A stretch of DNA of 64,000 bases from Flavobacteriales bacterium (GCA_035325445.1 DAOKZW010000001.1:2000-65999); one strand, 5' to 3'; shown: positions 29,045 to 62,753, counted from the first letter of the stretch. The notes: a model not told the origin generated them from the sequence alone. Numbers and translations are program-made.

Positions 29045-30054
29045 AAAAGCGTGAGCTCCCTGTTCGCCTTCACCTTGCTCTTTCTTACTGCTTTGGCATC
29101 CTCTGAAGGCAGATCATAGCACTCCTTCACCGCCTTGGCCAGCTGGTAGGCCAGCAATGGGGGCACCGCGTTACCGATCTGATTGAACTGCTGCGTCTCG
29201 TTACCCATGAACTCGAAATGGTCAGGGAAGCTCTGTAATCGGGCCGCCTCACGAACCAGGATCCTACGCCGTCGTCCATCTTCCAAACGCACGCGATGCA
29301 TATCCCCTGTCGCCCCGGCCAAATTGCGGCAGGTCAGCGTGCGTGCCGGGCGATCCCCGTACAGGTCACGAGGATTGATGCACTGCGAGGCCTTTTCGTA
29401 CTTGGCCACGTAGGCGTCCATGGCCGGAGTGAGGAACTTGCTCTCCGGCGGGGTCGTGAACATCATGTCTCCAATGGCTTCCGCCACCGTGACCTTTCGT
29501 CTACGCGCCACGGGGAATTGGAATGAGGAACGGTGCCCTACCACAAAGAGCCTTTCGCGGTTCTGCGGAACTCCGAAATTGACCGCATTCAGCAACCGGT
29601 AGTCCAACCGATACCCGAGCTTGACCAGCTCCTCCAGGATCAGCTCGAAGTACCACTTGTTCGCATAGAGTAAGCCGCGCACGTTCTCGAACATGAAAAC
29701 TTTGGGCTGCAATCGCTTCACGGCATCGATGAAGATGGGGAAACCGTCGCGGGCATCCTCCATGCCGCGCTGGTGGCCACCCACGCTGAATGGTTGGCAA
29801 GGCGGACCACCGATCACAATGTCGGCCTCCGGATACTCGAACCCCACTTCCAACTTCACTGCGTGACACTCGCTGCCCAGGTTGTGCCTGTAACTCTCGG
29901 CGGCAGCCTCATTCATCTCGTAGCCGATAGTCTTGAAGCCAACAGCCTCAAAGCCCAAGGCCAAACCGCCACAGCCCGCGAACAAGTCCAGTACCACTGC
30001 CTCCTCGGTGTGGCGGGGTACCAGTAGTTCGTTGAGTTCTGCGACGTAGGACAT
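29041..30054 (-). CDS. DNA (cytosine-5)-methyltransferase
   Basis: Motif I DLFAGCGG, motif IV GGPPCQPFS, motif VI ENV, motif VIII QNRERLFVVG and motif X GNAV, with a variable TRD between VIII and IX. Confidence 0.9.
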   Translation of the reverse strand: MSYVAELNELLVPRHTEEAVVLDLFAGCGGLALGFEAVGFKTIGYEMNEAAAESYRHNLGSECHAVKLEVGFEYPEADIVIGGPPCQPFSVGGHQRGMEDARDGFPIFIDAVKRLQPKVFMFENVRGLLYANKWYFELILEELVKLGYRLDYRLLNAVNFGVPQNRERLFVVGHRSSFQFPVARRRKVTVAEAIGDMMFTTPPESKFLTPAMDAYVAKYEKASQCINPRDLYGDRPARTLTCRNLAGATGDMHRVRLEDGRRRRILVREAARLQSFPDHFEFMGNETQQFNQIGNAVPPLLAYQLAKAVKECYDLPSEDAKAVRKSKVKANRELTLF

Positions 30055-30134: not shown

Positions 30135-32879
30135 ATGTGCAAAAGCTACCTTGTCATCTGCGCCTTCGACAAAATATTCGTCAATGCCGCTCGTCAAATG
30201 AAGGAAACTTCTACCTCCAGCGATCAGAACTCAACCTACATGGGCATTGAGCTACAGCACATCAAATGCCTCATAGCATCTCCATCCGATACCGGAGAAG
30301 AACGAGCTGCATGTGAAAGAGTTGTAGAGGAACTGAACAAAAGCATCGGTCTGTCACTTGGGGTCTTTTTGGAAACACGCATGTGGGAGCATGACACACA
30401 CCCAGCAATCGGAGAATATGCGCAAGGAGTCGTTAATGAACAGCTTGGCGACGACTACAAGATATTCATTGGGATCATGTACCAACGTTTTGGAACACCG
30501 ACAATAAATGCCGGTTCAGGAACAGAGGAAGAGTTCGACCGTGCAGTTACTCGACATCGGGAAGGCCAGGATGTTGAGGTAATGCTGTACTTCAATGACC
30601 AACCAGTTCCAGTACATGCGATTAACACAAACGACATTGATCGCATCAATGCATTCAAGAAAAGGGTCTCAGATGCAGGTGTGTACTATAAATCTTACTG
30701 TGGCGCATCAGACTTTGAAGGGATGCTCAGGCAGCATCTTACCAAGCAATTGATGAAGCTCTCTGGGGTGAGTGACCAAGGTGTTCTCGGCAACCATGGA
30801 GAGACCCCTCAAGAGTCGGCAGAAGAGGTTCTTCAAAAACGATTGAATGAAGCCTTAGTCAGCTTTTCTGGGCAACCCGTAATCTGGGTTGACCCGGTCC
30901 TGAGCAAGACCAATGACATATCATACAACGCGAACGCCAACTTCACAAGCCGTGTGAAACTTGAAGATCTAATCGATGAGCCGGACTCGGTGATTATCAA
31001 AGCTCCACCACAATTTGGGCTTACTTGCCTCGCCCATAGGTTGATTCTCGAAGCGTGGCGGAAGGGACAGCCATGGATTTACCTTGATTCCAAGGAGGTC
31101 AAGGCGCATCAGGCGCACAGAGTGGTGGAATCAGCCGCTGGCACCATGGGCTGGAGACTGGAAGACGTAATGTGCATCGTACTGGACTCGTGGAATTTTT
31201 ATGACGCGAAGGCACTTAAGAAACTTCGGACACTTTGTTCTACTCATCCGACTATCCCAATCATCGTGATGAACACGATAGATGAGACCAAGTTTGGGAA
31301 CGTGATTGAGGACAACGAGAAGATTGACCGGAACTTCAAAGTGCTGCACCTTCTAGCATTGCCAAGGACACAGTTGCGCAAGGTAGTAGCTCAGTATAAC
31401 GATGCCCGCGAAATCGGCGATGAGGACGTTGTACTCTCGAAAGTTGTGTCAGATCTTCAGTCGTTGAACATCCATCGTACTCCCTTCAACTGCTTGACGC
31501 TTTTGCGCGTCGCTGAGAGGGATTTCGACGAGAGCCCCGTGAACCGGACCAGGATGATTGAGATGGTCCTATTCGCACTTTTCAATATGGATGGCGTTCC
31601 TACCTACGCGTCACGCCTTGATTTGAAAGACTGTGAGTACATGCTCGGCCGACTCTGTGAGAGCATGATCCGAGATGGGTCATACCTATTCACACGAGAG
31701 CGATTCGTGTCCGCCCTGACCAACTTCGGAAAGGAGCAACTGATTGAATTGGACATTGAGAAGCTCTTTGAGGTTCTCTTCGCCAATCACATCATCGTTC
31801 GGCAAGATATAGGGTTCGTATTCCGTGCATCCTACTGGTTCTCATACTTCGCCGCGAAGCGCATGCACATCGACCCGAACTTCCGATCATTCATCTTCGA
31901 ATCGCGTAAGTACACGAGCATCCCGGAAATCATCGAGTTCTATACCGGTATTGACAGGAATCGAGCCGATGCACTCAAGGTTCTGTGTGAGGATCTGCGC
32001 GGAACCCGTGAATTGGTGAGTGCCAAGGTTGGCCTTCCGGAAAACATGAACCCCTATGACCACTTGAAGTGGCTGCCTACGGAGGACCAACTGGCAAGCA
32101 TTCAAGCCGACATCAGCCAAAGTGTACAACAATCCGGACTTCCGGATGAACTCAAGGACCAACATGCCGACAACGCCTACAACCAGCTCCGACCTTACAA
32201 CCAGAGCATACAAGACTTTTTTGAGAAATACTCAGTGTACAATCTCATACAAAAGGTAAGCGCTGCATCACGTGCGCTCAGAAACAGCGATTATGTTGAA
32301 CCCGGACTGAAGCGGGAGGTTCTTGCCGAACTCATGATGAGTTGGCAAGAGCTTTCAAAAGTCCTCATTGTCCTCGCCCCGGTTCTAGCTGCAAAAGGAG
32401 TAGCGGCGTATGAGGGTGCCACATTCTGGCTTGGGGACGGTTTTGGGGACACATTCACCGAACGCTTGCCGAAAATCATTCAAGCCCTTCCGACCAACAT
32501 TGTTGGCTTTTACAAGGACGATTTGGCCTCCGGGAAGATTGGTCCTCTTCTCTTCGACAGACTGATAACGGACGAGGACCCACTCCGCCGACACGAGTTG
32601 GCCTTGCTGACAATCTTCTCTCGCCCAACGGGCTGGAGAAGTCACATCGAAGGCTATATCGCTTCGGTGCACAAGAACTCGTTCTACCTTGCTGACTTGG
32701 TGATGGCGCTTCAGGTTCGCTATCGTTACGACTTCCTTGCAGACGGCGAGGCAAAGGACATCGAGTACCTCATCAAAATGGGTCTTGCCAAACACGAATT
32801 TGGGGACAAGCGTCCTGGCTTGGACAAGATCATAAGAATCTCGAATCGCGTCTTACCAAAGCGCGAGGGGGAAGAATAG
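30135..32879 (+). CDS. Large defense-island protein: N-terminal DUF4062-like domain, central STAND/NACHT-like NTPase with degenerate Walker A, C-terminal alpha-helical region
   Basis: 914-aa ORF at ~47% GC against a ~68% background. The N-terminus (KCLIASPSDTGEER...DYKIFIGIMYQRFGTP...SGTEEEFDRAV...VEVMLYF) fits the DUF4062 pattern. The central region has a P-loop-like IIKAPPQFGLTCLA with no Lys, Walker B-like MCIVLDSWNFYD and a sensor-like HRTPFNCLTLL. The start may be 30198 or 30240. Confidence 0.5.
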   Translation: MCKSYLVICAFDKIFVNAARQMKETSTSSDQNSTYMGIELQHIKCLIASPSDTGEERAACERVVEELNKSIGLSLGVFLETRMWEHDTHPAIGEYAQGVVNEQLGDDYKIFIGIMYQRFGTPTINAGSGTEEEFDRAVTRHREGQDVEVMLYFNDQPVPVHAINTNDIDRINAFKKRVSDAGVYYKSYCGASDFEGMLRQHLTKQLMKLSGVSDQGVLGNHGETPQESAEEVLQKRLNEALVSFSGQPVIWVDPVLSKTNDISYNANANFTSRVKLEDLIDEPDSVIIKAPPQFGLTCLAHRLILEAWRKGQPWIYLDSKEVKAHQAHRVVESAAGTMGWRLEDVMCIVLDSWNFYDAKALKKLRTLCSTHPTIPIIVMNTIDETKFGNVIEDNEKIDRNFKVLHLLALPRTQLRKVVAQYNDAREIGDEDVVLSKVVSDLQSLNIHRTPFNCLTLLRVAERDFDESPVNRTRMIEMVLFALFNMDGVPTYASRLDLKDCEYMLGRLCESMIRDGSYLFTRERFVSALTNFGKEQLIELDIEKLFEVLFANHIIVRQDIGFVFRASYWFSYFAAKRMHIDPNFRSFIFESRKYTSIPEIIEFYTGIDRNRADALKVLCEDLRGTRELVSAKVGLPENMNPYDHLKWLPTEDQLASIQADISQSVQQSGLPDELKDQHADNAYNQLRPYNQSIQDFFEKYSVYNLIQKVSAASRALRNSDYVEPGLKREVLAELMMSWQELSKVLIVLAPVLAAKGVAAYEGATFWLGDGFGDTFTERLPKIIQALPTNIVGFYKDDLASGKIGPLLFDRLITDEDPLRRHELALLTIFSRPTGWRSHIEGYIASVHKNSFYLADLVMALQVRYRYDFLADGEAKDIEYLIKMGLAKHEFGDKRPGLDKIIRISNRVLPKREGEE

Positions 32880-33694: not shown

Positions 33695-34960
33695 CTACAT
33701 ATTCCTCCTGTACTGCCCACCAACCTCAAACATGGCGGAGGTAAGCTGGCCGAGGCTACAGTACTTACACGCTTCCATCAGCACCGCAAACATGTTCTCG
33801 TTGCGGACCGCCGCCTGTTGGAGATCGTGCAAAGCTTTGGTGCTTTCCGCCGCGTAAGCGACCGTGAGGTTTTCCACGGTATGGATCTGATCCTCCTTTT
33901 CCTCTTCGGTGGCGCGGATCACCTCCTTGGGGATGATGGTGGGTGAGCCGCTGCTGCTGAGGAAGGTATTGACGCCCATGATGGGGTATTCGCCGCTGTG
34001 CTTGAGGCGCTCGTAGTAGAGGCTTTCCTCCTGGATCTGGCCGCGCTGGTACATGGTTTCCATGGCGCCCAGCACGCCGCCGCGCTCGGTGATGCGGTCG
34101 AACTCACTGAGCACGGCCTCTTCCACCAGGTCGGTGAGCTCCTCGATGATGAAGCTGCCCTGCAAGGGATTTTCGTTCTTGGCCAGGCCGAGCTCGTGGT
34201 TGATGATGAGCTGGATGGCGAGGGCGCGGCGCACGCTTTCCTCGGTGGGCGTGGTGATGGCCTCGTCGTAGGCGTTGGTGTGCAGGCTGTTGCAGTTGTC
34301 GTAAATGGCGTAGAGCGCCTGCAGCGTGGTGCGGATGTCGTTGAAATCGATCTCCTGCGCGTGCAGGCTGCGGCCGCTGGTCTGGATGTGGTACCGTGGG
34401 TGCCACTGCGGGCCTCGCTCCGGCATCACCGCCTTCGGCGGCCCTTCGGGCGAGCGCGCTCCTTGCGCCATACCGCGTTGCTTCCTCGGTCAGCTACCGG
34501 TTACGGTAGCCTCCCTCGTCGCGCCTTGTCTGGCACAAAGATCATCGCTCGTGCTTGCCGTTCGAGGCCCACAGAGGCACCCTGGCATCTGGCTGCGCTA
34601 TTCTCTGATCGAAGAACAGAAGGCGCGCCTGCCTGCCGAAGCGTCTTCGCGAAGGCATGGCCACGCGGCCCATCACGGCATACTCGGGGTCCATGCCGTT
34701 GCTGAAGAAGAAGCTCAGGTTCGGAGGGAAGGCGTTGATGTCCATGCCCCGACTGAGGTAGTACTCCACGTAGGTGAAGCCGTTCGCCAGCGTGAAGGCG
34801 AGCTGGCTGATGGGGTTGGCGCCGGCCTCCGCTATGTGGTAGCCGCTGATGCTTACGCTGTAGAAGTTGCGCACCTTCTTGTCGATGAAGTACTGCTGCA
34901 CGTCGCCCATGAGGCGCAGCGCGAACTCGGTACTGAAGATGCAGGTGTTCTGCGCCTGGT
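33695..34960 (-). pseudogene. Silent 3' copy A of icmF (mutase substrate-binding domain C-terminus), split by a ~270-nt insertion (track ORFs 33695..34471 and 34542..34910)
   Basis: Near-identical at protein level to the last ~360 aa of the intact icmF ([30 protein letters not shown]...[17 protein letters not shown]). There is no upstream coding continuation and the homology stops at ...TTCTGCGCCTGGT. Confidence 0.85.
34393..34662. mobile_element. MITE-like insertion inside icmF copy A
   Basis: ~270 nt replace 67 nt of the icmF sequence. Imperfect terminal inverted repeats (GGGTGCC-CTG-GGGCCTCG) flank an internal core shared with the insertion in copy B (CCTTCGGGCG.GCGCGCTC ... GCTACC-loop-GGTAGCCTCCCT ... 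GATCATCGC). Confidence 0.5.
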
Positions 34961-39079: not shown

Positions 39080-40338
39080 TTACATATTCCTCCTATACTG
39101 TCCCCCCACTTCGAACATCGCAGCCGTCAACTGCCCCAGCGAGCAAAACTTCGTCGCTTCCATCAATACCTCGAACATGTTCTCGTTCCGGATCGCGGCT
39201 TGTTGCAGATCCTTGATCGCCTTGGCCGCTTCATCCGCATAAGCAGTTCGGAGATTCTCCACGGTCGCGATCTGGGCTTCCTTCTCTTCTTCCGTTGCCC
39301 GAATGACCTCTTTCGGGAGAATTGTAGGTGACCCCTTGCTCGACAGGAAGGTATTCACCCCGATGATCGGATACTCGCCCGTGTGCTTGAGCGTTTCGTA
39401 GTAGAGGCTTTCCTCCTGGATCTTGCCGCGCTGGTACATCGTCTCCATGGCGCCGAGCACGCCGCCGCGTTCAGTGATGCGGTCGAACTCCTTCAGCACG
39501 GCTTCTTCCACCAGGTCGGTGAGTTCCTCGATGATGAAGCTGCCCTGCAGCGGGTTCTCGTTCTTGGCCAGGCCGAGCTCGCGGTTGATGATGAGCTCTC
39601 GGGTACCACACCGCACCCCGTTCCGGCGCCATGGCGGCACAGCCGCCACCCTTCGGGCGGGCGCGCTCGTCCGCCCATGCTGCGTTGCTCGGCGGTCGGC
39701 TACCTCGTGGTAGCCTCCCTTCCTCGCGCCTTGCCTGGCCGAACGATCATCGCCCGTGGCATCCGTTCGGGGCACGGCGTGGTACCCTGAGGCCATGGCG
39801 CGGCGCACGCTTTCCTCGGTGGGCGTGGTGATGGCCTCGTCGTAGGCGTTCGTGTGCAGGCTGTTGCAGTTGTCGTAGATGGCGTAGAGCGCCTGCAGGG
39901 TGGTGCGGATGTCGTTGAAGTCGATCTCTTGCGCGTGCAGGCTGCGGCCGCTGGTCTGGATGTGGTACTTCAGCATCTGGCTGCGCTCGTCGGCGCCGTA
40001 GCGGTGCTTGAGGGCTTTGGCCCAGAGGCGGCGCGCCACGCGACCCATCACGGCGTATTCGGGGTCCATGCCGTTGCTGAAGAAGAAGCTCAGGTTGGGC
40101 GCGAAGGCGTTGATGTCCATGCCCCGGCTGAGGTAGTACTCCACGTAGGTGAAGCCGTTGGCCAGGGTGAAGGCGAGCTGCGAGATGGGGTTGGCGCCGG
40201 CCTCTGCGATGTGGTACCCGCTGATGCTGACGCTGTAGAAGTTGCGGACCTTCTGGTCGATGAAGTACTGCTGCACGTCGCCCATCAAGCGCAGCGCGAA
40301 CTCGGTGCTGAAGATCGTTGTTCTGCGCCTGGTGGTTC
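39080..40338 (-). pseudogene. Silent 3' copy B of icmF with a ~190-nt in-frame insertion (track ORF 39080..40288)
   Basis: 402-aa ORF nearly identical to the intact IcmF C-terminus, except for a 63-aa insert between EESVRRAMA and LIINRELG. Homology to the intact gene ends at the same point as copy A. Confidence 0.85.
39603..39789. mobile_element. MITE-like insertion inside icmF copy B
   Basis: 187 nt bounded by GGTACC-containing ~24-bp imperfect terminal inverted repeats (GGGTACCACACCGCACCCCGTTCCGG / CCGTTCGGGGCACGGCGTGGTACCC). The internal hairpin GGCTACC-TCGT-GGTAGCC covaries with the copy A version GCTACCG-GTTA-CGGTAGC. Confidence 0.55.
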
Positions 40339-55053: not shown

Positions 55054-55902
55054 ATGAACCGGCTTTTCGTGCTGACGTTCGCCCTGCCACTGTCCTTCGC
55101 CGCTGCGGCCCAAAGCTGGTGCCCGCCAGGTGCCACGTGGACCTACGAGGCCGGATTGTTTGTCGCCGGTTTCCAGCGCATGACCTACACGCATGACACG
55201 ATCATCGCTGGCCACACGGCCCATGTGATCGACCGTTATGTTGCCATCCAGTATCCGCTTCCACCACCGGACTATGGCTTTACAGAACCTTACATCGATC
55301 ACACTCCGGTGGCAGCGATCACCCAATTGGAGGATGATGTGGTCTACATCTTTTCGGGCACCGACCGGGACACCTTGTACTGGTTCGGCGCCTTGCCTGG
55401 GGACCATTGGTATCCCGCTTTCGTGGATGACCCCACCTGCCAACCGCTCACGGTGACGGACACCTCCACCACCGTGGTCGATGGAGTGCCGTTGCGCACG
55501 CTCAACGTGTCCGGGGTCACGGTCATGGAGCGGATCGGCTGCACCTGGGACATGTTCATGTACTGCCCCAACTGGATCATTGATGGCCCCATGGGCATGC
55601 GCTGCTACAGCGATGCGGAGATCGAGTTCAGCTTGGTGGCCGGGGAATGCGAACTACTCATGGGTGTGCCTGAGGCAGAGCGATCGCATATCGCCCTTTA
55701 CCCCAACCCCGGCACCAACCAATTGATACTTCAACTTCCACCCGGCACGTTCAAGATCCAGATCCGCGATGCCTTGGGGCGCATGATCTGCCAAACTAAG
55801 GCAGCGGGATCACCCATCGAGATCGATACGGGCGCATGGCCCAGTGGCCTGTATCTGGTGCATGTGGATGGTCAGCCCGCGCAACGCTGGGTGAAGGAGT
55901 GA
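55054..55902 (+). CDS. T9SS type A CTD cargo protein (paralog 1)
   Basis: Signal peptide, the conserved N-terminal block QSWCPPGATWTYE, and a CTD (ALYPNPGTNQLILQLPPGTFKIQIRDALGRMI...GLYLVHVDGQPAQRWVKE). Confidence 0.6.
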   Translation: MNRLFVLTFALPLSFAAAAQSWCPPGATWTYEAGLFVAGFQRMTYTHDTIIAGHTAHVIDRYVAIQYPLPPPDYGFTEPYIDHTPVAAITQLEDDVVYIFSGTDRDTLYWFGALPGDHWYPAFVDDPTCQPLTVTDTSTTVVDGVPLRTLNVSGVTVMERIGCTWDMFMYCPNWIIDGPMGMRCYSDAEIEFSLVAGECELLMGVPEAERSHIALYPNPGTNQLILQLPPGTFKIQIRDALGRMICQTKAAGSPIEIDTGAWPSGLYLVHVDGQPAQRWVKE

Positions 55903-55974
55903 ACTGCAATCCTGGAGCGAGGGCGGTCAACAAAATGAACTTGAAACCTGTCTGTATTCAAACGAACTGATGCC

Positions 55975-56826
55975 ATGGCCCGACCGATCACTCTTCTCGT
56001 CTTGCTGTTGCTCGTCTTTCCCCTTCAGGCCCAGAACTGGTGCCCACCGGGCGCCACCTGGACCTATACATATACCGATGGCTGGATCTTTAACGGACAT
56101 GCCCGCTTCGAGTACGCGGGTGATACCCTTATTGACGGGGAAACCTGCCAGCGGATCGACCAATACTCCGAGGCTTGGAATTTCATCTTCGATACGCTGA
56201 TGGTCAGCCACGAACCCGCCGCGCTCATCACAAAGGTTGAAGGCGACCTGGTGAGCATCCTCACCGAAACGGGCTTCGACACACTCTATTGGTTCGGGGC
56301 CAACCCCGGCGACCATTGGTACGTGGCCATGCCGTACGCCATGGAGCCCCTGATGCGGTTCGACATCACCGATACCGGTACCGTGGTGATCGATGGCCTG
56401 CCGTTGCGTTACGTGGCCGCCGGGCCCGATACGATGGTGGAACGGCTCGGCTCGCTCTCCAACTTCATGCTGCCGTGGAACGCGGCATTGATCGACCACG
56501 GCACCCGCCCCTTGCCCTGTTATGCGGATGCGACGATCCGCTTCCCCGCCCCGTGGAGGCCCTTCGGATGCGCCAGCGGAATGGGCATCGACAACACCGC
56601 CAATGGACCGCGCATGTCCCTCTCCCCCAATCCCGGCCGTGACCTGTTGGTGATCCAGCTTCCGCCCGGTACGCACACAATCCATGTCCATGATGCTTTG
56701 GGGCGAATGGTGTTTCATACCGGGGTGGTTGGATCACGCATCGAGGTTGATACGGGCGCATGGCCCCAAGGTCTCTACATGGTACAGGTTGATGGACGGC
56801 CCGCGCAACGCTGGGTGAAAGAGTGA
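55975..56826 (+). CDS. T9SS type A CTD cargo protein (paralog 2)
   Basis: Collinear with paralog 1 (QNWCPPGATWTYTY...LSPNPGRDLLVIQLPPGTHTIHVHDALGRMV...GLYMVQVDGRPAQRWVKE). Confidence 0.6.
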   Translation: MARPITLLVLLLLVFPLQAQNWCPPGATWTYTYTDGWIFNGHARFEYAGDTLIDGETCQRIDQYSEAWNFIFDTLMVSHEPAALITKVEGDLVSILTETGFDTLYWFGANPGDHWYVAMPYAMEPLMRFDITDTGTVVIDGLPLRYVAAGPDTMVERLGSLSNFMLPWNAALIDHGTRPLPCYADATIRFPAPWRPFGCASGMGIDNTANGPRMSLSPNPGRDLLVIQLPPGTHTIHVHDALGRMVFHTGVVGSRIEVDTGAWPQGLYMVQVDGRPAQRWVKE

Positions 56827-56840
56827 ACTACCTTCACACC

Positions 56841-57704
56841 ATGCGATCCCGCACACTCCGCATTTCATCCGTGTTGTTTGCTGGCTGCACGGCCCTGTTC
56901 CTCACCGCCCAGATCCCCAACGGCGGCTTCGAGGATTGGGTGGACCACGGCAACTACACGGAACCCGCCGGATGGCTCACCTACAACGACGTACCCACAG
57001 TAGGCGGCCCCACGGTGGAACAAGGCACGCCGGGCCACCCCGGAAACTTCCATGCAGCGATCACCACGCGCCAGTCGCCGGGCGGCATCATGGCGATCCA
57101 AGGATGGATCTCCGCAGGGACCTCGTCCGACCATGCCGGGTTCCCCTTCACCCAGCGCCCGGCCGCTCTTACGGGGCAGTGGCAATACAATGCCGCGGCC
57201 GGTGATAGCGTCCAAGTGCTGGTGGCACTCAGCAAGTGGAACGGTACCGGCACGACCATGGTAGGCCAAGGCTCTTGGGCCGTCACAGGTGCCATCAACG
57301 GCTGGGAGCCATTCTCGGTCCCGATCATCTATTTCAACAATGAGGTGCCTGACACGGCGTACATCCAGATCGTTTCCAGCATCGACTTCGGCGCACCGGT
57401 GGTAGGTAGCACGCTGCGAGTGGACGACCTGGCGTTTTCCGGTGTGGCCGGCGTGGAGGGCCTTGGTGGCCTGCCCGATCTACACGTGTTGATCACTTCC
57501 CACGCCGACCGGATGTCGGTGAACGTTCCGCAGCCGGGCCTCTTTGAGCTTCTCGATATCACCGGACGCCGGTTGACGGCCCTTCACATCCCGCAGGCCA
57601 CCACCACCCTGAACGTGGGGCACCTCCCTCCGGGGGTGCTGTTGTACCGCTTCACCAGCGACCACGGGCAGCAAGTGGTGGCCGGAAAGTGGGTGAAAGA
57701 GTGA
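56841..57704 (+). CDS. T9SS type A CTD cargo protein (third member, KWVKE tail)
   Basis: Signal peptide (MRSRTLRISSVLFAGCTALFLTAQ) and a CTD ending LLYRFTSDHGQQVVAGKWVKE. It overlaps the upstream stop by 4 nt. Confidence 0.55.
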   Translation: MRSRTLRISSVLFAGCTALFLTAQIPNGGFEDWVDHGNYTEPAGWLTYNDVPTVGGPTVEQGTPGHPGNFHAAITTRQSPGGIMAIQGWISAGTSSDHAGFPFTQRPAALTGQWQYNAAAGDSVQVLVALSKWNGTGTTMVGQGSWAVTGAINGWEPFSVPIIYFNNEVPDTAYIQIVSSIDFGAPVVGSTLRVDDLAFSGVAGVEGLGGLPDLHVLITSHADRMSVNVPQPGLFELLDITGRRLTALHIPQATTTLNVGHLPPGVLLYRFTSDHGQQVVAGKWVKE

Positions 57705-57793
57705 GGGATCGGCCATAGGGCAAAGGGAACGGCCCTCGGCGCCGGTTGCGGTCCGATGTTCACCTGCCGATGTGTTCCAGAGGTGAATAACAA

Positions 57794-57824
57794 TTGCCCA
57801 TCGGGCGATCTGCCCATTGGGCAA
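57794..57824. promoter_or_regulatory. Palindromic candidate operator upstream of the WYL regulator gene
   Basis: TTGCCCA-N17-TGGGCAA, with an internal direct half-site repeat (TGCCCATCGGG / TGCCCATTGGG), 10-40 nt upstream of the WYL gene start codon. Confidence 0.4.
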
Positions 57825-57833
57825 ATTGCTTAA

Positions 57834-58736
57834 TTGCACACCATGTCCTACCGCGGAAAACTCAAACGTTACTGGCTCATCCTGAAGCGCCTGCAACAGG
57901 CACCCAGCATGGCGGAGATCATTGACCACCTGAACGACCACGGCTTCGAGATCAGCCAGCGCACGGTGGAACGCGACCTGGAGGACCTGCGTGACGACTT
58001 CGGCGTGGAGGTGGTGTACAACCGGCCCGGCAATAGCTACGGCATTTCCGAGGAACTGACCCGCGACCTGCCCGGGCTGATGCACCTGCTGGACCGGGTG
58101 CAGCTCCTGGAGCTGGTCCAAGGGAATACCAACGGCCTGCGCGAGCTGCACCGGTTCGTCCATTTCGAGGGCCTGGGCCAGCTCCGGGGCATCCAGCACC
58201 TCGAACCGCTCCTCCAAGCCATCCGCCTTCAGCGGGAAGTGCGCATCACGTACAAGAAGTTTTCGGAGGACAAGGCGAAGGTGCACCGCGTGAAGCCCCA
58301 CCAGCTGCGCGAATTCCACGGACGATGGTACGTGCTCGGGCCCACAGCCAACCACACCCGCCCCATCGCCCTGGGGCTCGACCGCATGGAGGAGGTGGAG
58401 GTGACGGACAAGCGATTCAAGCGTAAGGAGAATGAGCTCGATGCCCTGTACACCCATTCCATCGGCGTGGACACCAGCCCCGACAAGCCGGAGCAGGTGG
58501 TGCTGCATTTCCACCCCCAGCAGGCGCCCTATGTGAAGGCGCTGCCCCTCCACCCCTCCCAGGTTCCGGTGAAGGAGGATGCACGGGGCCTGACCGTCTC
58601 CCTGCACGTGATGGTGAACTTCGAGCTGCGCCAGATCATCCTCGGACATGGGCGCCTGGTGAAGGTGATCGCGCCCAAACACCTCGCCGCAAACATCCGG
58701 AAGGCGCACCGCGAGGCCGCGGCCCAGTACAAGTAA
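57834..58736 (+). CDS. WYL-domain transcriptional regulator (HTH + WYL)
   Basis: N-terminal winged HTH (SMAEIIDHLNDHGFEISQRTVERDLEDL) and a WYL domain with the hallmark HGRWYVLG. Length ~300 aa. Confidence 0.75.
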   Translation: MHTMSYRGKLKRYWLILKRLQQAPSMAEIIDHLNDHGFEISQRTVERDLEDLRDDFGVEVVYNRPGNSYGISEELTRDLPGLMHLLDRVQLLELVQGNTNGLRELHRFVHFEGLGQLRGIQHLEPLLQAIRLQREVRITYKKFSEDKAKVHRVKPHQLREFHGRWYVLGPTANHTRPIALGLDRMEEVEVTDKRFKRKENELDALYTHSIGVDTSPDKPEQVVLHFHPQQAPYVKALPLHPSQVPVKEDARGLTVSLHVMVNFELRQIILGHGRLVKVIAPKHLAANIRKAHREAAAQYK

Positions 58737-58794
58737 GGCATCCGGGAAAAAAACGCCGACATGCTTTGTCGGTGTAAGGGGGAAATCTTGGGGC

Positions 58795-59895
58795 ATGAAG
58801 CACCAAGCCCCATCCACCGACCTCCACCGGCGCAACGCACTCCTGAACGAACTCCCGGCCCGCCTGCGCCAGGGCCATTTCGGGATCGATCCCGAGATCC
58901 AGCAACTGCTCGATGCCTTCGCGCCGTGGTACCGTTTGGCCGAGGCACAGGAACGGCCACGCGTGATCGGACCGTGGGGCATGACCGGCACCGGCAAGAG
59001 CAGCCTGGTGCGCGCGTTGGTGAAGGAGGCGGGGCTGGAGGACCGCACCTTCTGGATCGATGCGGGCCAGTTCAAGGACCGCTGGCACCTCGCCGAGATC
59101 CTTTCCGCCCTCGAGCAGCATCACCAAGGCCGCCCCTTCGTGCTGGTGGTGGACGAGTTCCAGCATGCCCGCACCCTGCGGCTGGGGCTGGAAACGGAAG
59201 AGGCCCATCCCCTGCGCCGCTTCTGGGAACTGCTGGACACCGGCCGCGCCACGGTGGATCCCGAGTTCAGCATACGTGATATCTATGAACTGCATGATTT
59301 CCTTTTCCGCTTCCGCAAGGCCGTGCAGCATGGCGTAGTGGTGCGCAACGGCCGCATCGCCAAAGGCATCAAGGCCTACAGGGCGTGCATGGGCGAGAGG
59401 TACGAATCCGGCGAGGACCGCTGGGCGATCCCGCAATTCCTGTGGATCACCATGCATGAGCTGCACCACCACCCCAAGCCGTTGGTGGTGGAGGTGGAAC
59501 AGCACATGGCCGGCTGCGGTCACCAAGAGCTCATCGCCTGGCTGGAGCAGCTGCTGGCCAATGCCCGCGGCACCCGCATCCTTGATGCCAGCAAGGCCTT
59601 GGTGATCCTCCTCGGCAACCTCGACGAGCCGTACACCTTGGACAAGGAACCCTTGGCCGAGCTCGACCCCGATGTGCTGCTGCACCGGCACCGCAACATC
59701 GGGCTCGGGGGCGTGCACAACGCCCTGTTGCGCCTGTTCCGCATCGAACAGGTGGCCCGCATGGGCACGGACCACATCGTGTTCCCGCCCATCGGCCAAC
59801 AAGTGGTGGACACCTTGGTGCAGCACGCGGTGGGCAGCCTGGCCGCACGGCTATCCGTGATATCGGGTCACGAGATCCGTGTTTCCGCTTCCTAG
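58795..59895 (+). CDS. Divergent P-loop (AAA-like) ATPase
   Basis: Walker A VIGPWGMTGTGKSS and Walker B VLVVDEFQH. 366 aa with no TM helices. Its TAG stop is immediately followed by the GTG start of the next gene. Confidence 0.55.
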   Translation: MKHQAPSTDLHRRNALLNELPARLRQGHFGIDPEIQQLLDAFAPWYRLAEAQERPRVIGPWGMTGTGKSSLVRALVKEAGLEDRTFWIDAGQFKDRWHLAEILSALEQHHQGRPFVLVVDEFQHARTLRLGLETEEAHPLRRFWELLDTGRATVDPEFSIRDIYELHDFLFRFRKAVQHGVVVRNGRIAKGIKAYRACMGERYESGEDRWAIPQFLWITMHELHHHPKPLVVEVEQHMAGCGHQELIAWLEQLLANARGTRILDASKALVILLGNLDEPYTLDKEPLAELDPDVLLHRHRNIGLGGVHNALLRLFRIEQVARMGTDHIVFPPIGQQVVDTLVQHAVGSLAARLSVISGHEIRVSAS

Positions 59896-60714
59896 GTGGA
59901 TCATTTGCGACGTGTCTCGGCCATCGCCGTGATGGGCGCACGTCCCGTGGTGCAGGCCGTGCAGAACACGCTGCCCATGCACCTCTCCCGTGTGATCGCG
60001 GCGTTGCCAACCACCGTTTCGGGGCCGATCCACTTCACGGTCAGGGAAGACATACCGGTAGCCACATACGAGGATGGGAACGGCACCCGGATCATCCGCC
60101 TGGCCTGGCCCGCGGCCTTCCAGAAGGGTTCCGGCCCGTCGCCGGGGCACCTGCACGCCGTGGCGGTGCATGAGGCCGGGCACGTCCTGTGCGGCGTGCT
60201 GCTCCTCGGGCACAAGCCCTTGCAGGCCTGCGTACATGTCCGCGACCACAACATCGGTGGCTTTGTCATCTGGGACCGCGACATGGAGCCCGACCTGAAG
60301 CGTTCCCAGATCGTGCCCCTGCTGGCCAAGGGCCTTGGGGGCTGGGCAGCGGAGCGCGTGGCCTTCGGTCCTGACGGGGTGACGGCCGGCAGCTCCGACG
60401 ATATCCGGAAGGTGTCGTCACTGGCGCTGGCCTTGGCCAAGGAAAGCGGTCTGGGCGCGGACAGGCTGCACCATGCGCATCATCCTCAATTCGACGGCCC
60501 CGGATTCCGAACGACCCTGACCCAGGCGGAAGCCCAGGCCCGGCAATGGGTGGAGGCGGCCGAAGCACTGGCGGTGTCAGCGATCCAGGAAAACAGAAGG
60601 ATGCTGGACAGGATCGCCCGGGAGCTGGAAGCGAAGGGAAGCTTGGGGATGAAGGAACTTAAGGAGCTGGTCAGCGAATTTCAAGCCGCTGCACCCCGTG
60701 CCATGGCCGGCTGA
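59896..60714 (+). CDS. Stand-alone FtsH-type (M41-like) zinc metallopeptidase domain protein
   Basis: HEAGH zinc motif (AVHEAGHVLCGVLL), the third-ligand block LGGWAAERVAFG, and a downstream AGSSDDIRKVSSLALAL collinear with the FtsH M41 GASNDlerAT region. No AAA module or TM helices. Confidence 0.55.
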   Translation: MDHLRRVSAIAVMGARPVVQAVQNTLPMHLSRVIAALPTTVSGPIHFTVREDIPVATYEDGNGTRIIRLAWPAAFQKGSGPSPGHLHAVAVHEAGHVLCGVLLLGHKPLQACVHVRDHNIGGFVIWDRDMEPDLKRSQIVPLLAKGLGGWAAERVAFGPDGVTAGSSDDIRKVSSLALALAKESGLGADRLHHAHHPQFDGPGFRTTLTQAEAQARQWVEAAEALAVSAIQENRRMLDRIARELEAKGSLGMKELKELVSEFQAAAPRAMAG

Positions 60715-60740: not shown

Positions 60741-62753
60741 CTACTTCTTCACCGCCGGTGGCAGCGGCGCGGGCCGCAAGCCGGTCACCTCTTGGATCTC
60801 CAGCTCGTCCAGCGTTTCGCGCTCCAACAGCGCCTTCGCCAAGGCATCCAGTTGCGGGCGGTGTTCCATCAGCAAACGGGTGGCCTCGGCATGGCACTCA
60901 CCGATGATCCGGTGCACCTCCTCATCCACACGCCGGGCGGTGTGCTCGCTGATGTCCTTTTGCGGAAGCGCGCCGTACCCGCCACTGAGGTAGGGATTCT
61001 CCCGCCCGGCCAGTTCCACCATGCCCAATTCGTCGCTCATGCCCCAGCGCGTGACCATCCGGCGGGCGATGCCCGTGGCCTGCTCGATATCGTTCTCCGC
61101 CCCGGTGGTGCGATCGCCGTACACCACCTCCTCAGCGACCCGGCCGCCCAAGATGCCGATGATGCGTGCCCGGAGGAACTGCTCGGTGTAGTTGTAGCGG
61201 TCCTCATCCGGACGCTGGTAGGTGACGCCCAAGGCCTGTCCGCGCGGCACGATGCTCACCCGCTTCACCGGGTCCGCACCGGGCATCAGCAGGCCCAGGA
61301 TGGCGTGACCGCCCTCGTGGTAGGCGATCCGTTCGCGATCCGCCGGGTTGAGCACCAAGGCGCGCGCCGGGCCCAGCAACACCTTTTCCAACGAGTCCAT
61401 GAAGTCGGCCTGGTGCACTTGGTCCTGCTTGCGGCGTGCGGCCATCAGGGCGGCCTCGTTCACAAGGTTCCTCAGATCGGCGCCGCTCAGGCCCGGCGTG
61501 GAGCCCGCCACCTCGGCCAGGCTGACGTCCGCGGCCAGCGGCACCTTGCGCGTGTGCACCTTCAGGATGGCCTCGCGCCCGTGGCGGTCGGGCAGGTTCA
61601 CCACCACCCGCCGATCGAAGCGGCCGGCCCGCAGCAGGGCCTTGTCCAGGATGTCGGGCTGGTTGGTGGCGGCCAGCACGATCACGCCCGTGGTGCTGGA
61701 GAAGCCGTCCATCTCGGCGAGGATCTGGTTCAGCGTCTGCTCCTGTTCCTGCGCGCCGCCCAAGGCGGTCATGCCCCGCGCCCTTCCGATGGAGTCGATC
61801 TCGTCGATGAAGATGATGGAGGGCGCATGCTCGCGGGCCTGCTTGAACAGGTCGCGGACACGGGCGGCACCCACGCCGACGATCATCTCCACGAACTCGG
61901 AGCCGCTCATGCTGAAGAAGGGCACGTCGGCCTCGCCGGCCACGGCCCGCGCCAGCAGGGTCTTGCCCGTGCCGGGCGCCCCGATGAGCAGCACGCCCTT
62001 GGGCGCGGCCCCGCCCAGGCGGGTGTACTTCTCGGGATCCTTCAGGAAATCCACGATCTCCACCAGCTCCTCCTCCGCATCGTCGATGCCCGCCACGTCG
62101 TCGAAGGTCACCCGCTTATCGGTCTCCTTGTCGAAGCGCTTGGCCTGGCTGCGCCCGATGCCCATCATGCCGCCGGCACCACCGGCCAAGCCGCCCTGCC
62201 TCATCCGGCGGAACAGGAAGATGTAGAGGCCGATGATGAGCAGGGCCGGGCCGAACATGTAGAGGAAGCTCATGATGGGGCTGACCTCCTTCACCACGGG
62301 TTCGGCACTGATCTCCACCTCATGGTCAAGCAGCAGCTCCTCCAAGCGGGTGTCGGCAAAGGCCGGCAGCACCGTGGTGAACTGCTTCACCTCCGCTGGT
62401 CCGCGGGCATGCAGCTTGATGGCGGCGGAATCCTTCGGCCAGGTGACGGGCTCGATGAAGATGCCGCTGATCGATTCGCCCTTACCGTACACCTCCTTCA
62501 CATTGCCGCGTTCCACCTCGGCCTTGAACAGGGTGTACGGTATGGTCACCGCCTGCTCCCGGGTGCCTTCCAGGAAGGAGCGCACCGCCCAGATGTTGAA
62601 CAGCAGGAGCAGGATGAACCAAAACCAAGAGGCGCGCGGCAATTGCCGCACGGGCGGCTTGTTGCCGGAGGAGGCATCATTCGGGCCAGCGCCCGGCTTA
62701 CGTGCATTGGGCATCATAAGGCCTAAGATACCCCTGCCTTGGCGACCGTACAA
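60741..62753 (-). CDS. ftsH: ATP-dependent zinc metalloprotease FtsH
   Basis: Two N-terminal TM helices and a AAA module (GAPGTGKTLLARAVAGEADVPFF, Walker B IIFIDEIDSIGRARG, SRH). The M41 domain has HEGGHAILG. The start may lie a few codons further downstream. Confidence 0.95.
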   Translation of the reverse strand: MYGRQGRGILGLMMPNARKPGAGPNDASSGNKPPVRQLPRASWFWFILLLLFNIWAVRSFLEGTREQAVTIPYTLFKAEVERGNVKEVYGKGESISGIFIEPVTWPKDSAAIKLHARGPAEVKQFTTVLPAFADTRLEELLLDHEVEISAEPVVKEVSPIMSFLYMFGPALLIIGLYIFLFRRMRQGGLAGGAGGMMGIGRSQAKRFDKETDKRVTFDDVAGIDDAEEELVEIVDFLKDPEKYTRLGGAAPKGVLLIGAPGTGKTLLARAVAGEADVPFFSMSGSEFVEMIVGVGAARVRDLFKQAREHAPSIIFIDEIDSIGRARGMTALGGAQEQEQTLNQILAEMDGFSSTTGVIVLAATNQPDILDKALLRAGRFDRRVVVNLPDRHGREAILKVHTRKVPLAADVSLAEVAGSTPGLSGADLRNLVNEAALMAARRKQDQVHQADFMDSLEKVLLGPARALVLNPADRERIAYHEGGHAILGLLMPGADPVKRVSIVPRGQALGVTYQRPDEDRYNYTEQFLRARIIGILGGRVAEEVVYGDRTTGAENDIEQATGIARRMVTRWGMSDELGMVELAGRENPYLSGGYGALPQKDISEHTARRVDEEVHRIIGECHAEATRLLMEHRPQLDALAKALLERETLDELEIQEVTGLRPAPLPPAVKK

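Follow-up and report, generated by a model that had tools for sequence, protein, structure and literature searches.

A Probable Two-Gene Module of Bacteroidota: A DriD/PafBC-Like WYL Factor and a Predicted Soluble Clp-D2/M41 Protease, Interrupted by a Nonsense Codon in a Flavobacteriales Genome

Introduction

How should three co-oriented open reading frames (ORFs) at positions 57794-60714 of a 64-kb stretch of Flavobacteriales DNA (GCA_035325445.1, DAOKZW010000001.1:2000-65999; “the window”, with positions counted from its first letter) be read, and what might their products do together? An initial annotation, made from the sequence alone, had described a WYL-family regulator (57834..58736), a divergent P-loop ATPase (58795..59895) and a stand-alone M41 peptidase (59896..60714). 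It had interpreted them as a “split FtsH-like” cassette, possibly of the abortive-infection type. The three ORFs on the + strand are indeed present, and their identities as a WYL regulator, a P-loop AAA-type ATPase and an M41 protein were confirmed by Pfam and profile searches; the architecture and the function that had been drawn from them did not hold.

The locus is probably a two-gene module, in which a DriD/PafBC-like WYL transcription factor is paired with a soluble protease made of a Clp-D2-type motor and an M41 peptidase, the protease being interrupted by a TAG codon here and the module being induced by DNA damage. Confidence is high for the structural core of this reading, namely one interrupted gene, a chimera of Clp-D2 and M41 modules, and linkage to a WYL gene; for the damage-induced regulatory mechanism, the arguments for and against are about evenly balanced.

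To our knowledge, the accepted bacterial ATP-dependent proteases form a short list comprising ClpXP, ClpAP/ClpCP, HslUV, Lon, FtsH and the actinobacterial proteasome. To this list, a large soluble family with a Clp motor and an FtsH peptidase in one chain would add a new protease design, and it would constitute a natural experiment in motor/peptidase swapping. Furthermore, it leads to a testable hypothesis for the poorly understood DNA-damage signalling of Bacteroidota, according to which the sensing of damage or single-stranded DNA (ssDNA) is coupled to regulated proteolysis.

One Gene Interrupted by a Nonsense Codon

The coding features of the locus are as follows (aa, amino acids).

57843..58736, + strand: WYL-family transcription factor with winged helix-turn-helix (wHTH), WYL and WCX domains, 297 aa (Pfam, PADLOC WYL models, PDB profile matches)
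58795..60714, + strand: one 639-codon frame for a predicted soluble AAA+-M41 metalloprotease with one TAG inside, colinear with fused homologues
58795..59892, + strand: N-fragment, 366 aa, with helices at the N-terminus, the AAA+ large domain (Clp-D2-type) and the lid's first half
58969-59004, + strand: Walker A of the N-fragment, GPWGMTGTGKSS
59140-59163, + strand: Walker B of the N-fragment, VLVVDEFQ
Between Walker B and sensor-1 of the N-fragment: family-specific insert of ~110-145 aa
59611-59628, + strand: sensor-1 of the N-fragment, LGNLDE
59737-59760, + strand: FRIEQVAR of the N-fragment
59893..59895, + strand: in-frame TAG nonsense codon, at a Leu column of most homologues
59896..60714, + strand: C-fragment, 272 aa counted from the GTG (a conserved Val), carrying the final helices of the lid, a small beta linker and the M41 peptidase
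59935-59946, + strand: sensor-2 GARP of the C-fragment
60169-60183, + strand: HEAGH of the C-fragment
60400-60402: M41 acidic Asp of the C-fragment, in SSDD; the other conserved acidic residue is the Glu in AAE

The TAG at 59893-59895 and the GTG at 59896 share one frame with the start at 58795. Homologues of the ATPase are nearly all single proteins of 624-641 aa that also bear Peptidase_M41 (PF01434), and the frame of the window, when read through the TAG, aligns with these fused homologues free of gaps. In this alignment, the TAG stands in a column that is Leu in most homologues (..DAALVDHLR.. versus ..SAS*VDHLR.. in the window), while the GTG formerly taken as a start codon corresponds to a conserved Val. 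Because they share one frame and align without a gap across the TAG to fused homologues, the “ATPase” and “peptidase” ORFs are best read as one gene with one in-frame stop. The protease frame is uninterrupted in about 120 homologous loci (620-700 aa), among them 34 species-representative genome loci and 80 metagenome loci. The translational coupling of two genes by TAG-GTG that had been proposed is replaced by this stop at a conserved Leu; likewise, the three-gene cassette of the initial annotation proves to be a two-gene module, in which the fused protease is the rule. The case carries a general warning for annotation, in that an adjacent “ATPase” and “stand-alone peptidase” can be a single gene with one nonsense codon.

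A Predicted Soluble Protease with a Clp-D2-Type Motor and an M41 Peptidase

To place the protease, a family profile of 27 fused homologues was searched against PDB sequences. Its M41 part matches FtsH, YME1 and AFG3L2 (E 1e-25 to 1e-18), and FtsH-type similarity is limited to this part, with FtsH's own AAA module scoring 3-5 bits. Positions 288-432 of the profile match the second nucleotide-binding domains (NBD2) of ClpB, ClpC, ClpA and Hsp104 (E 1e-17 to 1e-10), and positions 9-99, comprising the pre-Walker-A helix and the P-loop, match the D2 domains of ClpA and ClpE. Several homologues also match PF10431 (ClpB_D2-small). When the AlphaFold2 (AF2) model of the fused homologue P0008 was submitted to Foldseek, its ATPase half fell on ClpB NBD2 (template modelling (TM) score 0.65-0.70, target-normalised; root-mean-square deviation ~5.5 A), and the whole protease superposed on FtsH. 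An AAA module is, thus, supported by both model and profile, as the initial annotation had anticipated; its type is that of Clp/Hsp100 D2 and not that of a divergent FtsH, so that the name “split FtsH” does not suit the motor.

The two ORFs of the window give the same picture at the level of individual domains. Peptidase_M41 scores 64.7 bits in the 272-aa ORF (cut-off 29.9), and the AF2 model of this ORF matches FtsH protease domains (2di4, TM 0.76, target-normalised; 3kds, E = 9e-10), in line with the M41 fold that had been predicted; the HExxH motif and the downstream acidic ligands complete the M41 signature. The 366-aa ORF yields weak P-loop/AAA Pfam matches, with PF00004 over residues 61-129 at E = 1.5e-4. 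Neither AAA_lid_3 nor FtsH_ext was matched when the fragments were searched with Pfam, and the FtsH_fam model of NCBIfam (TIGR01241, cut-off 600 bits) scores 43 bits, its match being confined to the peptidase. All the motifs that had been quoted for the locus are present—Walker A and B, HEAGH, LGGWAAERVAFG and SSDDIRKVS, the last three being located in the 272-aa peptidase ORF. Across the family, Walker A and B, the sensor-1 N, R315/R321 (FRIEQVxR), GARP, HExGH, E520 (AAE) and D536 (DD) are invariant; in the C-fragment, this applies to HEAGH, E153 and D169. The Clp/Hsp100 D2 hallmarks Walker A/B, sensor-1, Arg finger and a sensor-2 GAR in a D2-small lid are found, the TAG cutting before the GARP.

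The protease is predicted to be soluble and devoid of a membrane anchor, as the highest 19-residue Kyte-Doolittle values are 1.09 and 1.57 in the window's fragments and at most 1.77 in the 27 homologues, compared with 2.23 in the neighbouring FtsH. With 1,029 representatives at 50% identity and E <= 1e-30, and at least 150 full-length members at E < 1e-122, the family is large. Its members belong almost entirely to Bacteroidota (Flavobacteriales, Cryomorphaceae, Chitinophagales, Cytophagales, Saprospiraceae), with few others, and Flavihumibacter stibioxidans is a cultured carrier. No family model was found in NCBIfam, PADLOC or PHROGs, and a literature search that covered WYL together with M41, soluble proteins resembling FtsH, and Peptidase_M41 in the anti-phage field returned no description, which agrees with the initial view of an uncharacterised system. 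The “FtsH ternary systems” (PMC7159879) were considered as a candidate and set aside as a different, MoxR-vWA-linked thing.

Three known protease designs delimit the family. With FtsH and the related AAA proteases of the M41 group (YME1, AFG3L2), it shares the C-terminal M41 zinc fold, with HExxH and the conserved Glu and Asp, as well as the order of ATPase and peptidase in one chain; by analogy, it would presumably form rings and depend on ATP. FtsH differs in possessing two transmembrane helices that flank a periplasmic FtsH_ext domain, both of which are lacking here, and in its classical-clade AAA module, whereas the present protease has GARP, a lid of the Clp D2-small type, the family-specific insert and a beta linker. 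With the D2 modules of Clp/Hsp100 proteins (ClpB, ClpC, ClpA, Hsp104 NBD2), it has in common the region from sensor-1 to sensor-2, the small domain, the pre-Walker-A helix and the P-loop. In contrast to these, it is a single ring module without D1, N-domain, middle domain and GYVG loop, and carries its peptidase fused in cis instead of docking ClpP. The segment from strand 2 to Walker B is ~15 residues shorter than in ClpB D2. Lon, whose motor is of the same AAA+ clade as Clp, follows the same design, in which one soluble chain unites an AAA+ motor and a C-terminal protease; however, its protease uses a Ser-Lys dyad (S16) instead of the zinc of M41, and the Lon N-domain is absent here. No sequence relationship to Lon was detectable in the Pfam and PDB profile searches run. 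Taken together, the family appears to be an undescribed one, in which a soluble single chain joins a Clp-D2-type motor, a lid, a small beta linker and an FtsH-type M41 zinc peptidase.

Position of the Cut and Fate of the Interrupted Gene

In the AF2 model of P0008 (predicted local distance difference test, pLDDT, 85.9), the AAA+ lid covers approximately residues 334-401 and contains a strand (359-362), a helix (364-374), the invariant sensor-2 GARP (380-383) and the last helix (382-401). Beyond the lid, a small beta unit occupies residues 410-435, and the M41 domain residues 448-626. According to this model, the TAG of the window would map to residue ~366, between the lid strand and the helix. 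Because the TAG falls inside the lid, the 272-aa ORF would open with the last lid helices and the sensor-2 Arg (~40 residues). It is, thus, modelled as no clean stand-alone peptidase, and the 366-aa ORF as an ATPase without sensor-2. The initial description of the 272-aa ORF was right about the missing membrane anchor; it was wrong in regarding the ORF as free of AAA sequence, given the lid residues including GARP.

In the lineage of the window, one Leu-to-TAG change in the AAA+ lid divides the gene into the 366-aa and 272-aa ORFs, and a working two-piece enzyme and a young pseudogene are at roughly even odds. That both pieces are made by termination and reinitiation at the adjacent GTG, and then reassemble, is a proposal on which we are evenly divided. 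The alternative of a young pseudogene, in which the nonsense codon abolishes function and leaves the regulator without its target, is the strongest rival, being only a little less likely to be true than false. In its favour is the position of the TAG within a folded domain, upstream of the invariant sensor-2 Arg, which is thereby parted from the rest of the ATPase. In addition, when the C-fragment was modelled alone (AF2, pLDDT 83.5), its orphaned first ~20 residues were of low confidence (pLDDT 49-56), while the M41 part was confident. The contigs with this allele are near-identical over the gene, so that the mutation may be recent and other lesions not yet accrued, and a second paralogue in some metagenome-assembled genomes (MAGs) could make loss tolerable.

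Several observations speak against a dead gene. Every invariant residue of both halves is intact in the window, and the C half is no more diverged than the N half; no signal of relaxed selection on the C half after the split was seen, a comparison in which five near-identical contigs give no power. The TAG allele occurs in five sequencing runs and in two strain backgrounds. Moreover, in an independent lineage (L071; 52% identical, beside a WYL gene), a 1-nt frameshift lies 4-9 codons upstream of the position of the window's TAG and creates a stop that again overlaps a GTG (TAGTG). The chance of two random lesions in 635 codons lying within 9 codons is about 3%, for a coincidence that was spotted post hoc and involves a single contig of L071. 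Given two independent breaks at the same lid loop, one may ask whether an AAA+ lid can come in two pieces and remain functional.

The WYL Regulator and Its Linkage to the Protease

The regulator fits the wHTH-WYL-WCX architecture: PF13280 scores 50.5 bits (cut-off 21.8) and PF25583 (WCX) 47.3 bits (cut-off 23.9), residues 11-60 give matches of the HTH type, and PADLOC WYL models match the protein. Its mechanical start is the TTG at 57834; the N-termini of homologues and gene calls favour the ATG at 57843, which is most likely the true start. A profile of 16 of these WYL proteins (profile A4), searched against PDB, recovered PafBC (7.5e-12), PafB (1e-8) and DriD (1.4e-8 to 5e-8) ahead of CapW (4.6e-5) and BrxR (4.5e-4); by profile score, the regulator is nearer to PafBC and DriD than to CapW and BrxR.

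DriD (Caulobacter) and PafBC (mycobacteria) are ssDNA-sensing WYL activators of SOS-independent DNA-damage responses. With them, the present regulator shares the wHTH-WYL-WCX arrangement, the best PDB matches and an operator-like palindrome (see below), yet the resemblance is distant and does not extend beyond the WYL and WCX parts, and the target is a protease here, not didA, recA or repair genes. PafBC is encoded beside the ATP-dependent Pup-proteasome system (PMC6789036), so that a WYL factor stands next to an ATP-dependent protease in both cases. BrxR and CapW, the WYL repressors of BREX and CBASS, have the same three-domain architecture and are likewise local regulators beside their target with a palindromic operator; they differ by weaker profile similarity, and no BREX, CBASS or other PADLOC system is adjacent here.

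Linkage to the protease was evaluated in two sets of loci. Upon BLAST clustering of the neighbours of 44 loci, the WYL protein was the sole recurrent partner (22/44) and no conserved third gene emerged; the genes that follow immediately downstream (226, 181 and 143 aa) show no relationship and have no Pfam match. Among 80 metagenome loci, 52 have a WYL gene within 3.5 kb, and 13 of the other 28 have adequate flanks. Within the window's clade, the WYL gene is present in 15 of the 17 members with sufficient flank, and two further clades also carry it. Usually it lies directly upstream of the protease on the same strand, sometimes downstream or 1-3 genes away. The pairing of regulator and protease, which the initial annotation had postulated from one locus, is thereby upheld as a conserved association and appears functionally meaningful.

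In one subclade (L010, L014, L068, L083, L088, L094), genes for a PAD_porph protein (arginine/agmatine deiminase-type) and an ADP-ribosylglycohydrolase are found directly upstream of the protease on the same strand. This pair in a WYL-linked unit may indicate a connection with protein modification involving arginine or ADP-ribose.

A separate observation concerns the regulator gene itself. From nucleotide 611 of the WYL gene onwards, across protease, TAG and FtsH, the contig L001 (SRR31012035) equals the window, the sole difference being a synonymous one at 59630. Over 57862-58452, i.e., the first two thirds of the WYL gene, divergence amounts to 19% (117 substitutions, with 58 codons changed synonymously and 38 non-synonymously), and for the upstream genes identity is 94% and 84%. 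There is, thus, either a recombination breakpoint or a chimeric assembly within the regulator gene, at about 58453, between L001 and the window.

Candidate Operator and Promoter Elements

Three kinds of non-coding elements accompany the two genes (nt, nucleotides).

58756..58772, unstranded: DriD-box-like palindrome CCGAC-ATGCTTT-GTCGG (CCGACATGCTTTGTCGG), starting 39 nt before the protease ATG
58783..58790, + strand: -7-box-like element AAATCTTG (TAnnTTTG), at a fixed distance past the palindrome and 4 nt before the ATG
57709-57723, 57794-57808 and 57810-57824, unstranded: three near-palindromes TTGCCCATNGGGCAA, just upstream of the WYL gene

The spacer between the WYL gene and the protease holds a palindrome with the consensus (c)TACGACA-N3-TTTG(G/T)CGTAg and the core ACGAC-N7-GTCGT, conserved among loci whose proteins are merely 25-55% identical; in the window, both half-sites are altered symmetrically relative to the consensus. 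Among 111 non-redundant loci, considering 190 nt before the protease start, the core occurs with at most one mismatch in 19 (expected, 0.004 per locus) and with at most two mismatches in 42. In L083 and L084, where genes intervene between WYL and protease, the motif is still found directly before the protease. The operator of DriD in Caulobacter has been defined as the natural site ATACGTCCGTTTCTGGCGCA and the palindromic version ATACGACCGTTTCTGTCGCA (PMC9186387), a 20-bp palindrome of the form TACGAC-N7-GTCG, and the half-sites and spacing of the protease palindrome are those of this operator (ACGAC-N7-GTCG). The right half in the window, TGTCGG-N10-aAatcT, also fits the PafBC motif tGTCgg(N10)tA(N3)T (PMC8635444). 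An operator of the DriD/PafBC type is, thus, recognisable at the target promoter at the level of sequence. Because of the DriD-like half-sites and spacing and the enrichment before protease genes, 58756-58772 is likely the operator of the WYL protein on the protease promoter and is regarded as a candidate site.

Shortly after the palindrome follows an element that resembles the -7 consensus of Bacteroidetes promoters. Homologous loci carry GAATCTTG, AACCTTTG, TAGCTTTG or TAGGTTTG at this -7-like position, which in the window's clade lies 4-5 nt before the ATG and suggests a leaderless or very short-leadered protease transcript. A sigma-70-type promoter scan gave zero matches, a scan that is uninformative for Bacteroidota.

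Alternatively, the palindrome could be an RNA element, such as a leader hairpin, an attenuator or a processing site. It is an inverted repeat between two co-oriented genes whose outer arm positions vary symmetrically among lineages, and it could in principle form an RNA hairpin. Such symmetric changes are, however, equally expected of the operator of a dimer. Rfam has no match in the region, no T-run follows the palindrome on the + strand, ACGAC-N7-GTCG is the experimentally defined layout of the DriD operator, and a -7-like box with the start codon within 4-5 nt would place much of the palindrome upstream of the transcript start. We, therefore, regard an RNA element as unlikely and retain the operator as the preferred reading.

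Upstream of the WYL gene, the palindrome noted in the initial annotation was recovered in the form of three TTGCCCATNGGGCAA copies, the sole cluster of this motif at up to two mismatches in the 64-kb window. This motif is different from the protease-side box and lineage-specific. Related loci have short direct repeats of their own before the WYL gene, e.g., ATCTGCGTC x4 in L020 and CTGATC x3 in L027/L028, and no shared operator was found upstream of WYL genes. Elsewhere in the 64-kb window, no credible DriD-like box was detected, a match at 30498 lying inside an ORF, and no regulon beyond the adjacent gene was seen there.

In a few other loci, extra DriD-like boxes precede further genes (L092/L099 at position 1032; L140 at positions 1272 and 1822). 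The box of L092 stands before an operon that encodes a 213-aa protein, a weakly UDG-like protein of 244 aa and the WYL factor itself. In L140, the region between WYL and protease holds two small paralogous ORFs (126 and 102 aa), each with a box in front of it. These loci look like small local regulons.

Proposed Mechanism and Trigger

The elements described above may be combined as follows. A WYL dimer would bind the palindrome before the protease gene; upon binding of a nucleic-acid signal (ssDNA from DNA damage, possibly from phage infection) by the WYL domain, transcription of the protease would be switched on. The protease would form a ring via its M41 and AAA+ domains and degrade specific cytosolic proteins, for which, by analogy with the linkage of PafBC to the proteasome, damaged or spent DNA-repair proteins or regulators may be candidates.

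A trigger of the damage or nucleic-acid-stress type is favoured. Apart from the affinity of regulator and operator to PafBC/DriD, there are hints from neighbouring genes: three lineages have Ogt next to the module and three have a gene for alkylation repair of the AlkD-like kind, and a PD-(D/E)XK nuclease, a DUF2130 protein, a phosphoesterase and two weak UDG-like proteins lie inside such operons. The PAD_porph and ADP-ribosylglycohydrolase pair of the one subclade is counted among these hints as well. Because ssDNA-sensing WYL factors serve in both damage and phage settings (PMC11662680), a phage-related trigger is a conceivable, less favoured alternative. In this regard, distant full-length homologues are found on six large IMG/VR contigs, with no WYL gene nearby. 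On these contigs (L072-L077, 61-353 kb), the protease homologues are 22-24% identical and lie in phage-like, tightly packed co-oriented arrays; in L073 and L076, about eleven tandem ORFs of ~150-165 aa each, without a PHROG match, precede the homologue.

Several points weigh against a WYL-controlled, damage-induced and processive protease. About 20% of the adequately flanked loci are without a nearby WYL gene, and distant protease clades have ordinary housekeeping genes as neighbours. Only ~22 nt separate the end of the palindrome from the start codon in the window's clade, so that the palindrome may overlap the core promoter, a position that would suit repression as well as activation. Neither a GYVG-type pore-1 loop nor a ClpP-docking loop was found in the motor; the pore-loop position holds a conserved Trp-Leu in the family and Trp-His in the window, so that processive unfolding is not assured.

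In its widest form, the proposal would comprise a new cytosolic class of AAA+ proteases (Clp/Hsp100-D2 and M41 in cis), coupled to an ssDNA-sensing WYL factor as a damage- or infection-inducible module in parallel to PafBC and the proteasome, with the natural fission of the lid being tolerated and the sensor-2 Arg being supplied by the peptidase-bearing polypeptide here. This combination is tentative, and we consider it more likely to be false than true.

Defence System or Damage Response?

According to the initial annotation, the locus would be a genuine three-gene cassette. A separate ATPase, translationally coupled to a stand-alone M41 peptidase, would make up with it a “split FtsH-like” system of abortive infection or defence, gated by a WYL repressor of the BrxR/CapW type. 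There is some ground for this: BREX and CBASS are under the control of WYL factors with this architecture, and the PADLOC WYL models match the regulator; the distant homologues on the six IMG/VR contigs are in a viral setting; toxin-antitoxin genes occur near some loci; and variable “cargo” genes lie between WYL and protease in some lineages. However, the split goes back to one nonsense codon in an otherwise fused gene, by which the three-gene architecture is refuted, the motor is Clp-D2-like and not FtsH-like, the WYL profile is nearer to PafBC and DriD, and the palindrome before the protease resembles the DriD box. PADLOC-DB v2 contains no model for the protease, the ATPase giving two marginal P-loop matches (E 0.002-0.007) and the peptidase none, and no copies of the protease were found in plasmid or GenBank phage records. 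The GC content of the cassette (0.64-0.65) is host-like. Across loci, its chromosomal neighbours are housekeeping or syntenic genes and include FtsH, methylmalonyl-CoA mutase, the nuo operon, rplU-rpmA, serS, ispD and glgB, and the true defence island of the window is at 28-33 kb. With neither an effector model nor a defence island or mobile element attached to the module, a defence cassette is improbable, and the two-gene module with an interrupted protease remains the preferred reading.

Least credible of all is that the TAG arose through an error in sequencing or assembly, or that recoding or a suppressor tRNA permits read-through, considering that an identical TAG context was found in contigs from five different sequencing runs (independent short-read assemblies), that TAG is a normal stop here, terminating FtsH and 16 of 52 confident long ORFs in the window, and that neither a suppressor tRNA in the window nor a near-identical fused version in a collection of 5.8 billion proteins was found, even though other family members look fragmented in long-read MAGs. 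In two such long-read-derived MAGs, L070 (GCA_016705675.1) and L028, the protease gene apparently lies in three frames. These breaks were not taken as biological splits and were set aside as indel errors of the assembly, the HI0933-like neighbour in L070 being fragmented likewise.

Neighbouring Genes in the Window

The following features lie outside the module.

60741..62753, - strand: canonical membrane FtsH, 670 aa, convergent neighbour (FtsH_ext, AAA, AAA_lid_3, M41)
28034-29044, - strand: BsuBI/PstI-type restriction endonuclease
29041-30054, - strand: C5 cytosine methylase
30135-32879, + strand: nSTAND NTPase, 914 aa

The canonical FtsH is the convergent neighbour, as had been noted; the accompanying claim that the cassette is foreign to typical ftsH neighbourhoods was not confirmed, since FtsH is also near the protease gene in the related Flavobacteriales L012, L018, L019 and L028. 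The adjacency is one of lineage synteny.

Upstream of the cassette, at 55054-57704, there are three tandem genes (282, 283 and 293 aa), the first two of which are clearly paralogous, with products terminating in ..RWVKE or ..KWVKE. In the near-identical contigs L001/L002, one of the three is called with a Por_Secre_tail signal of the type IX secretion system, which supports a Bacteroidota origin.

The defence island, comprising the restriction endonuclease, the methylase and the nSTAND NTPase, is located at ~28-33 kb, 25 kb from the cassette, and within a low-GC stretch at ~26-40 kb (island GC 0.49-0.59 versus ~0.64 elsewhere). Because fragments of methylmalonyl-CoA mutase at 33695-34471 and 39080-40288 flank or follow it, the island may have disrupted the mutase gene, which in related genomes adjoins the WYL gene.

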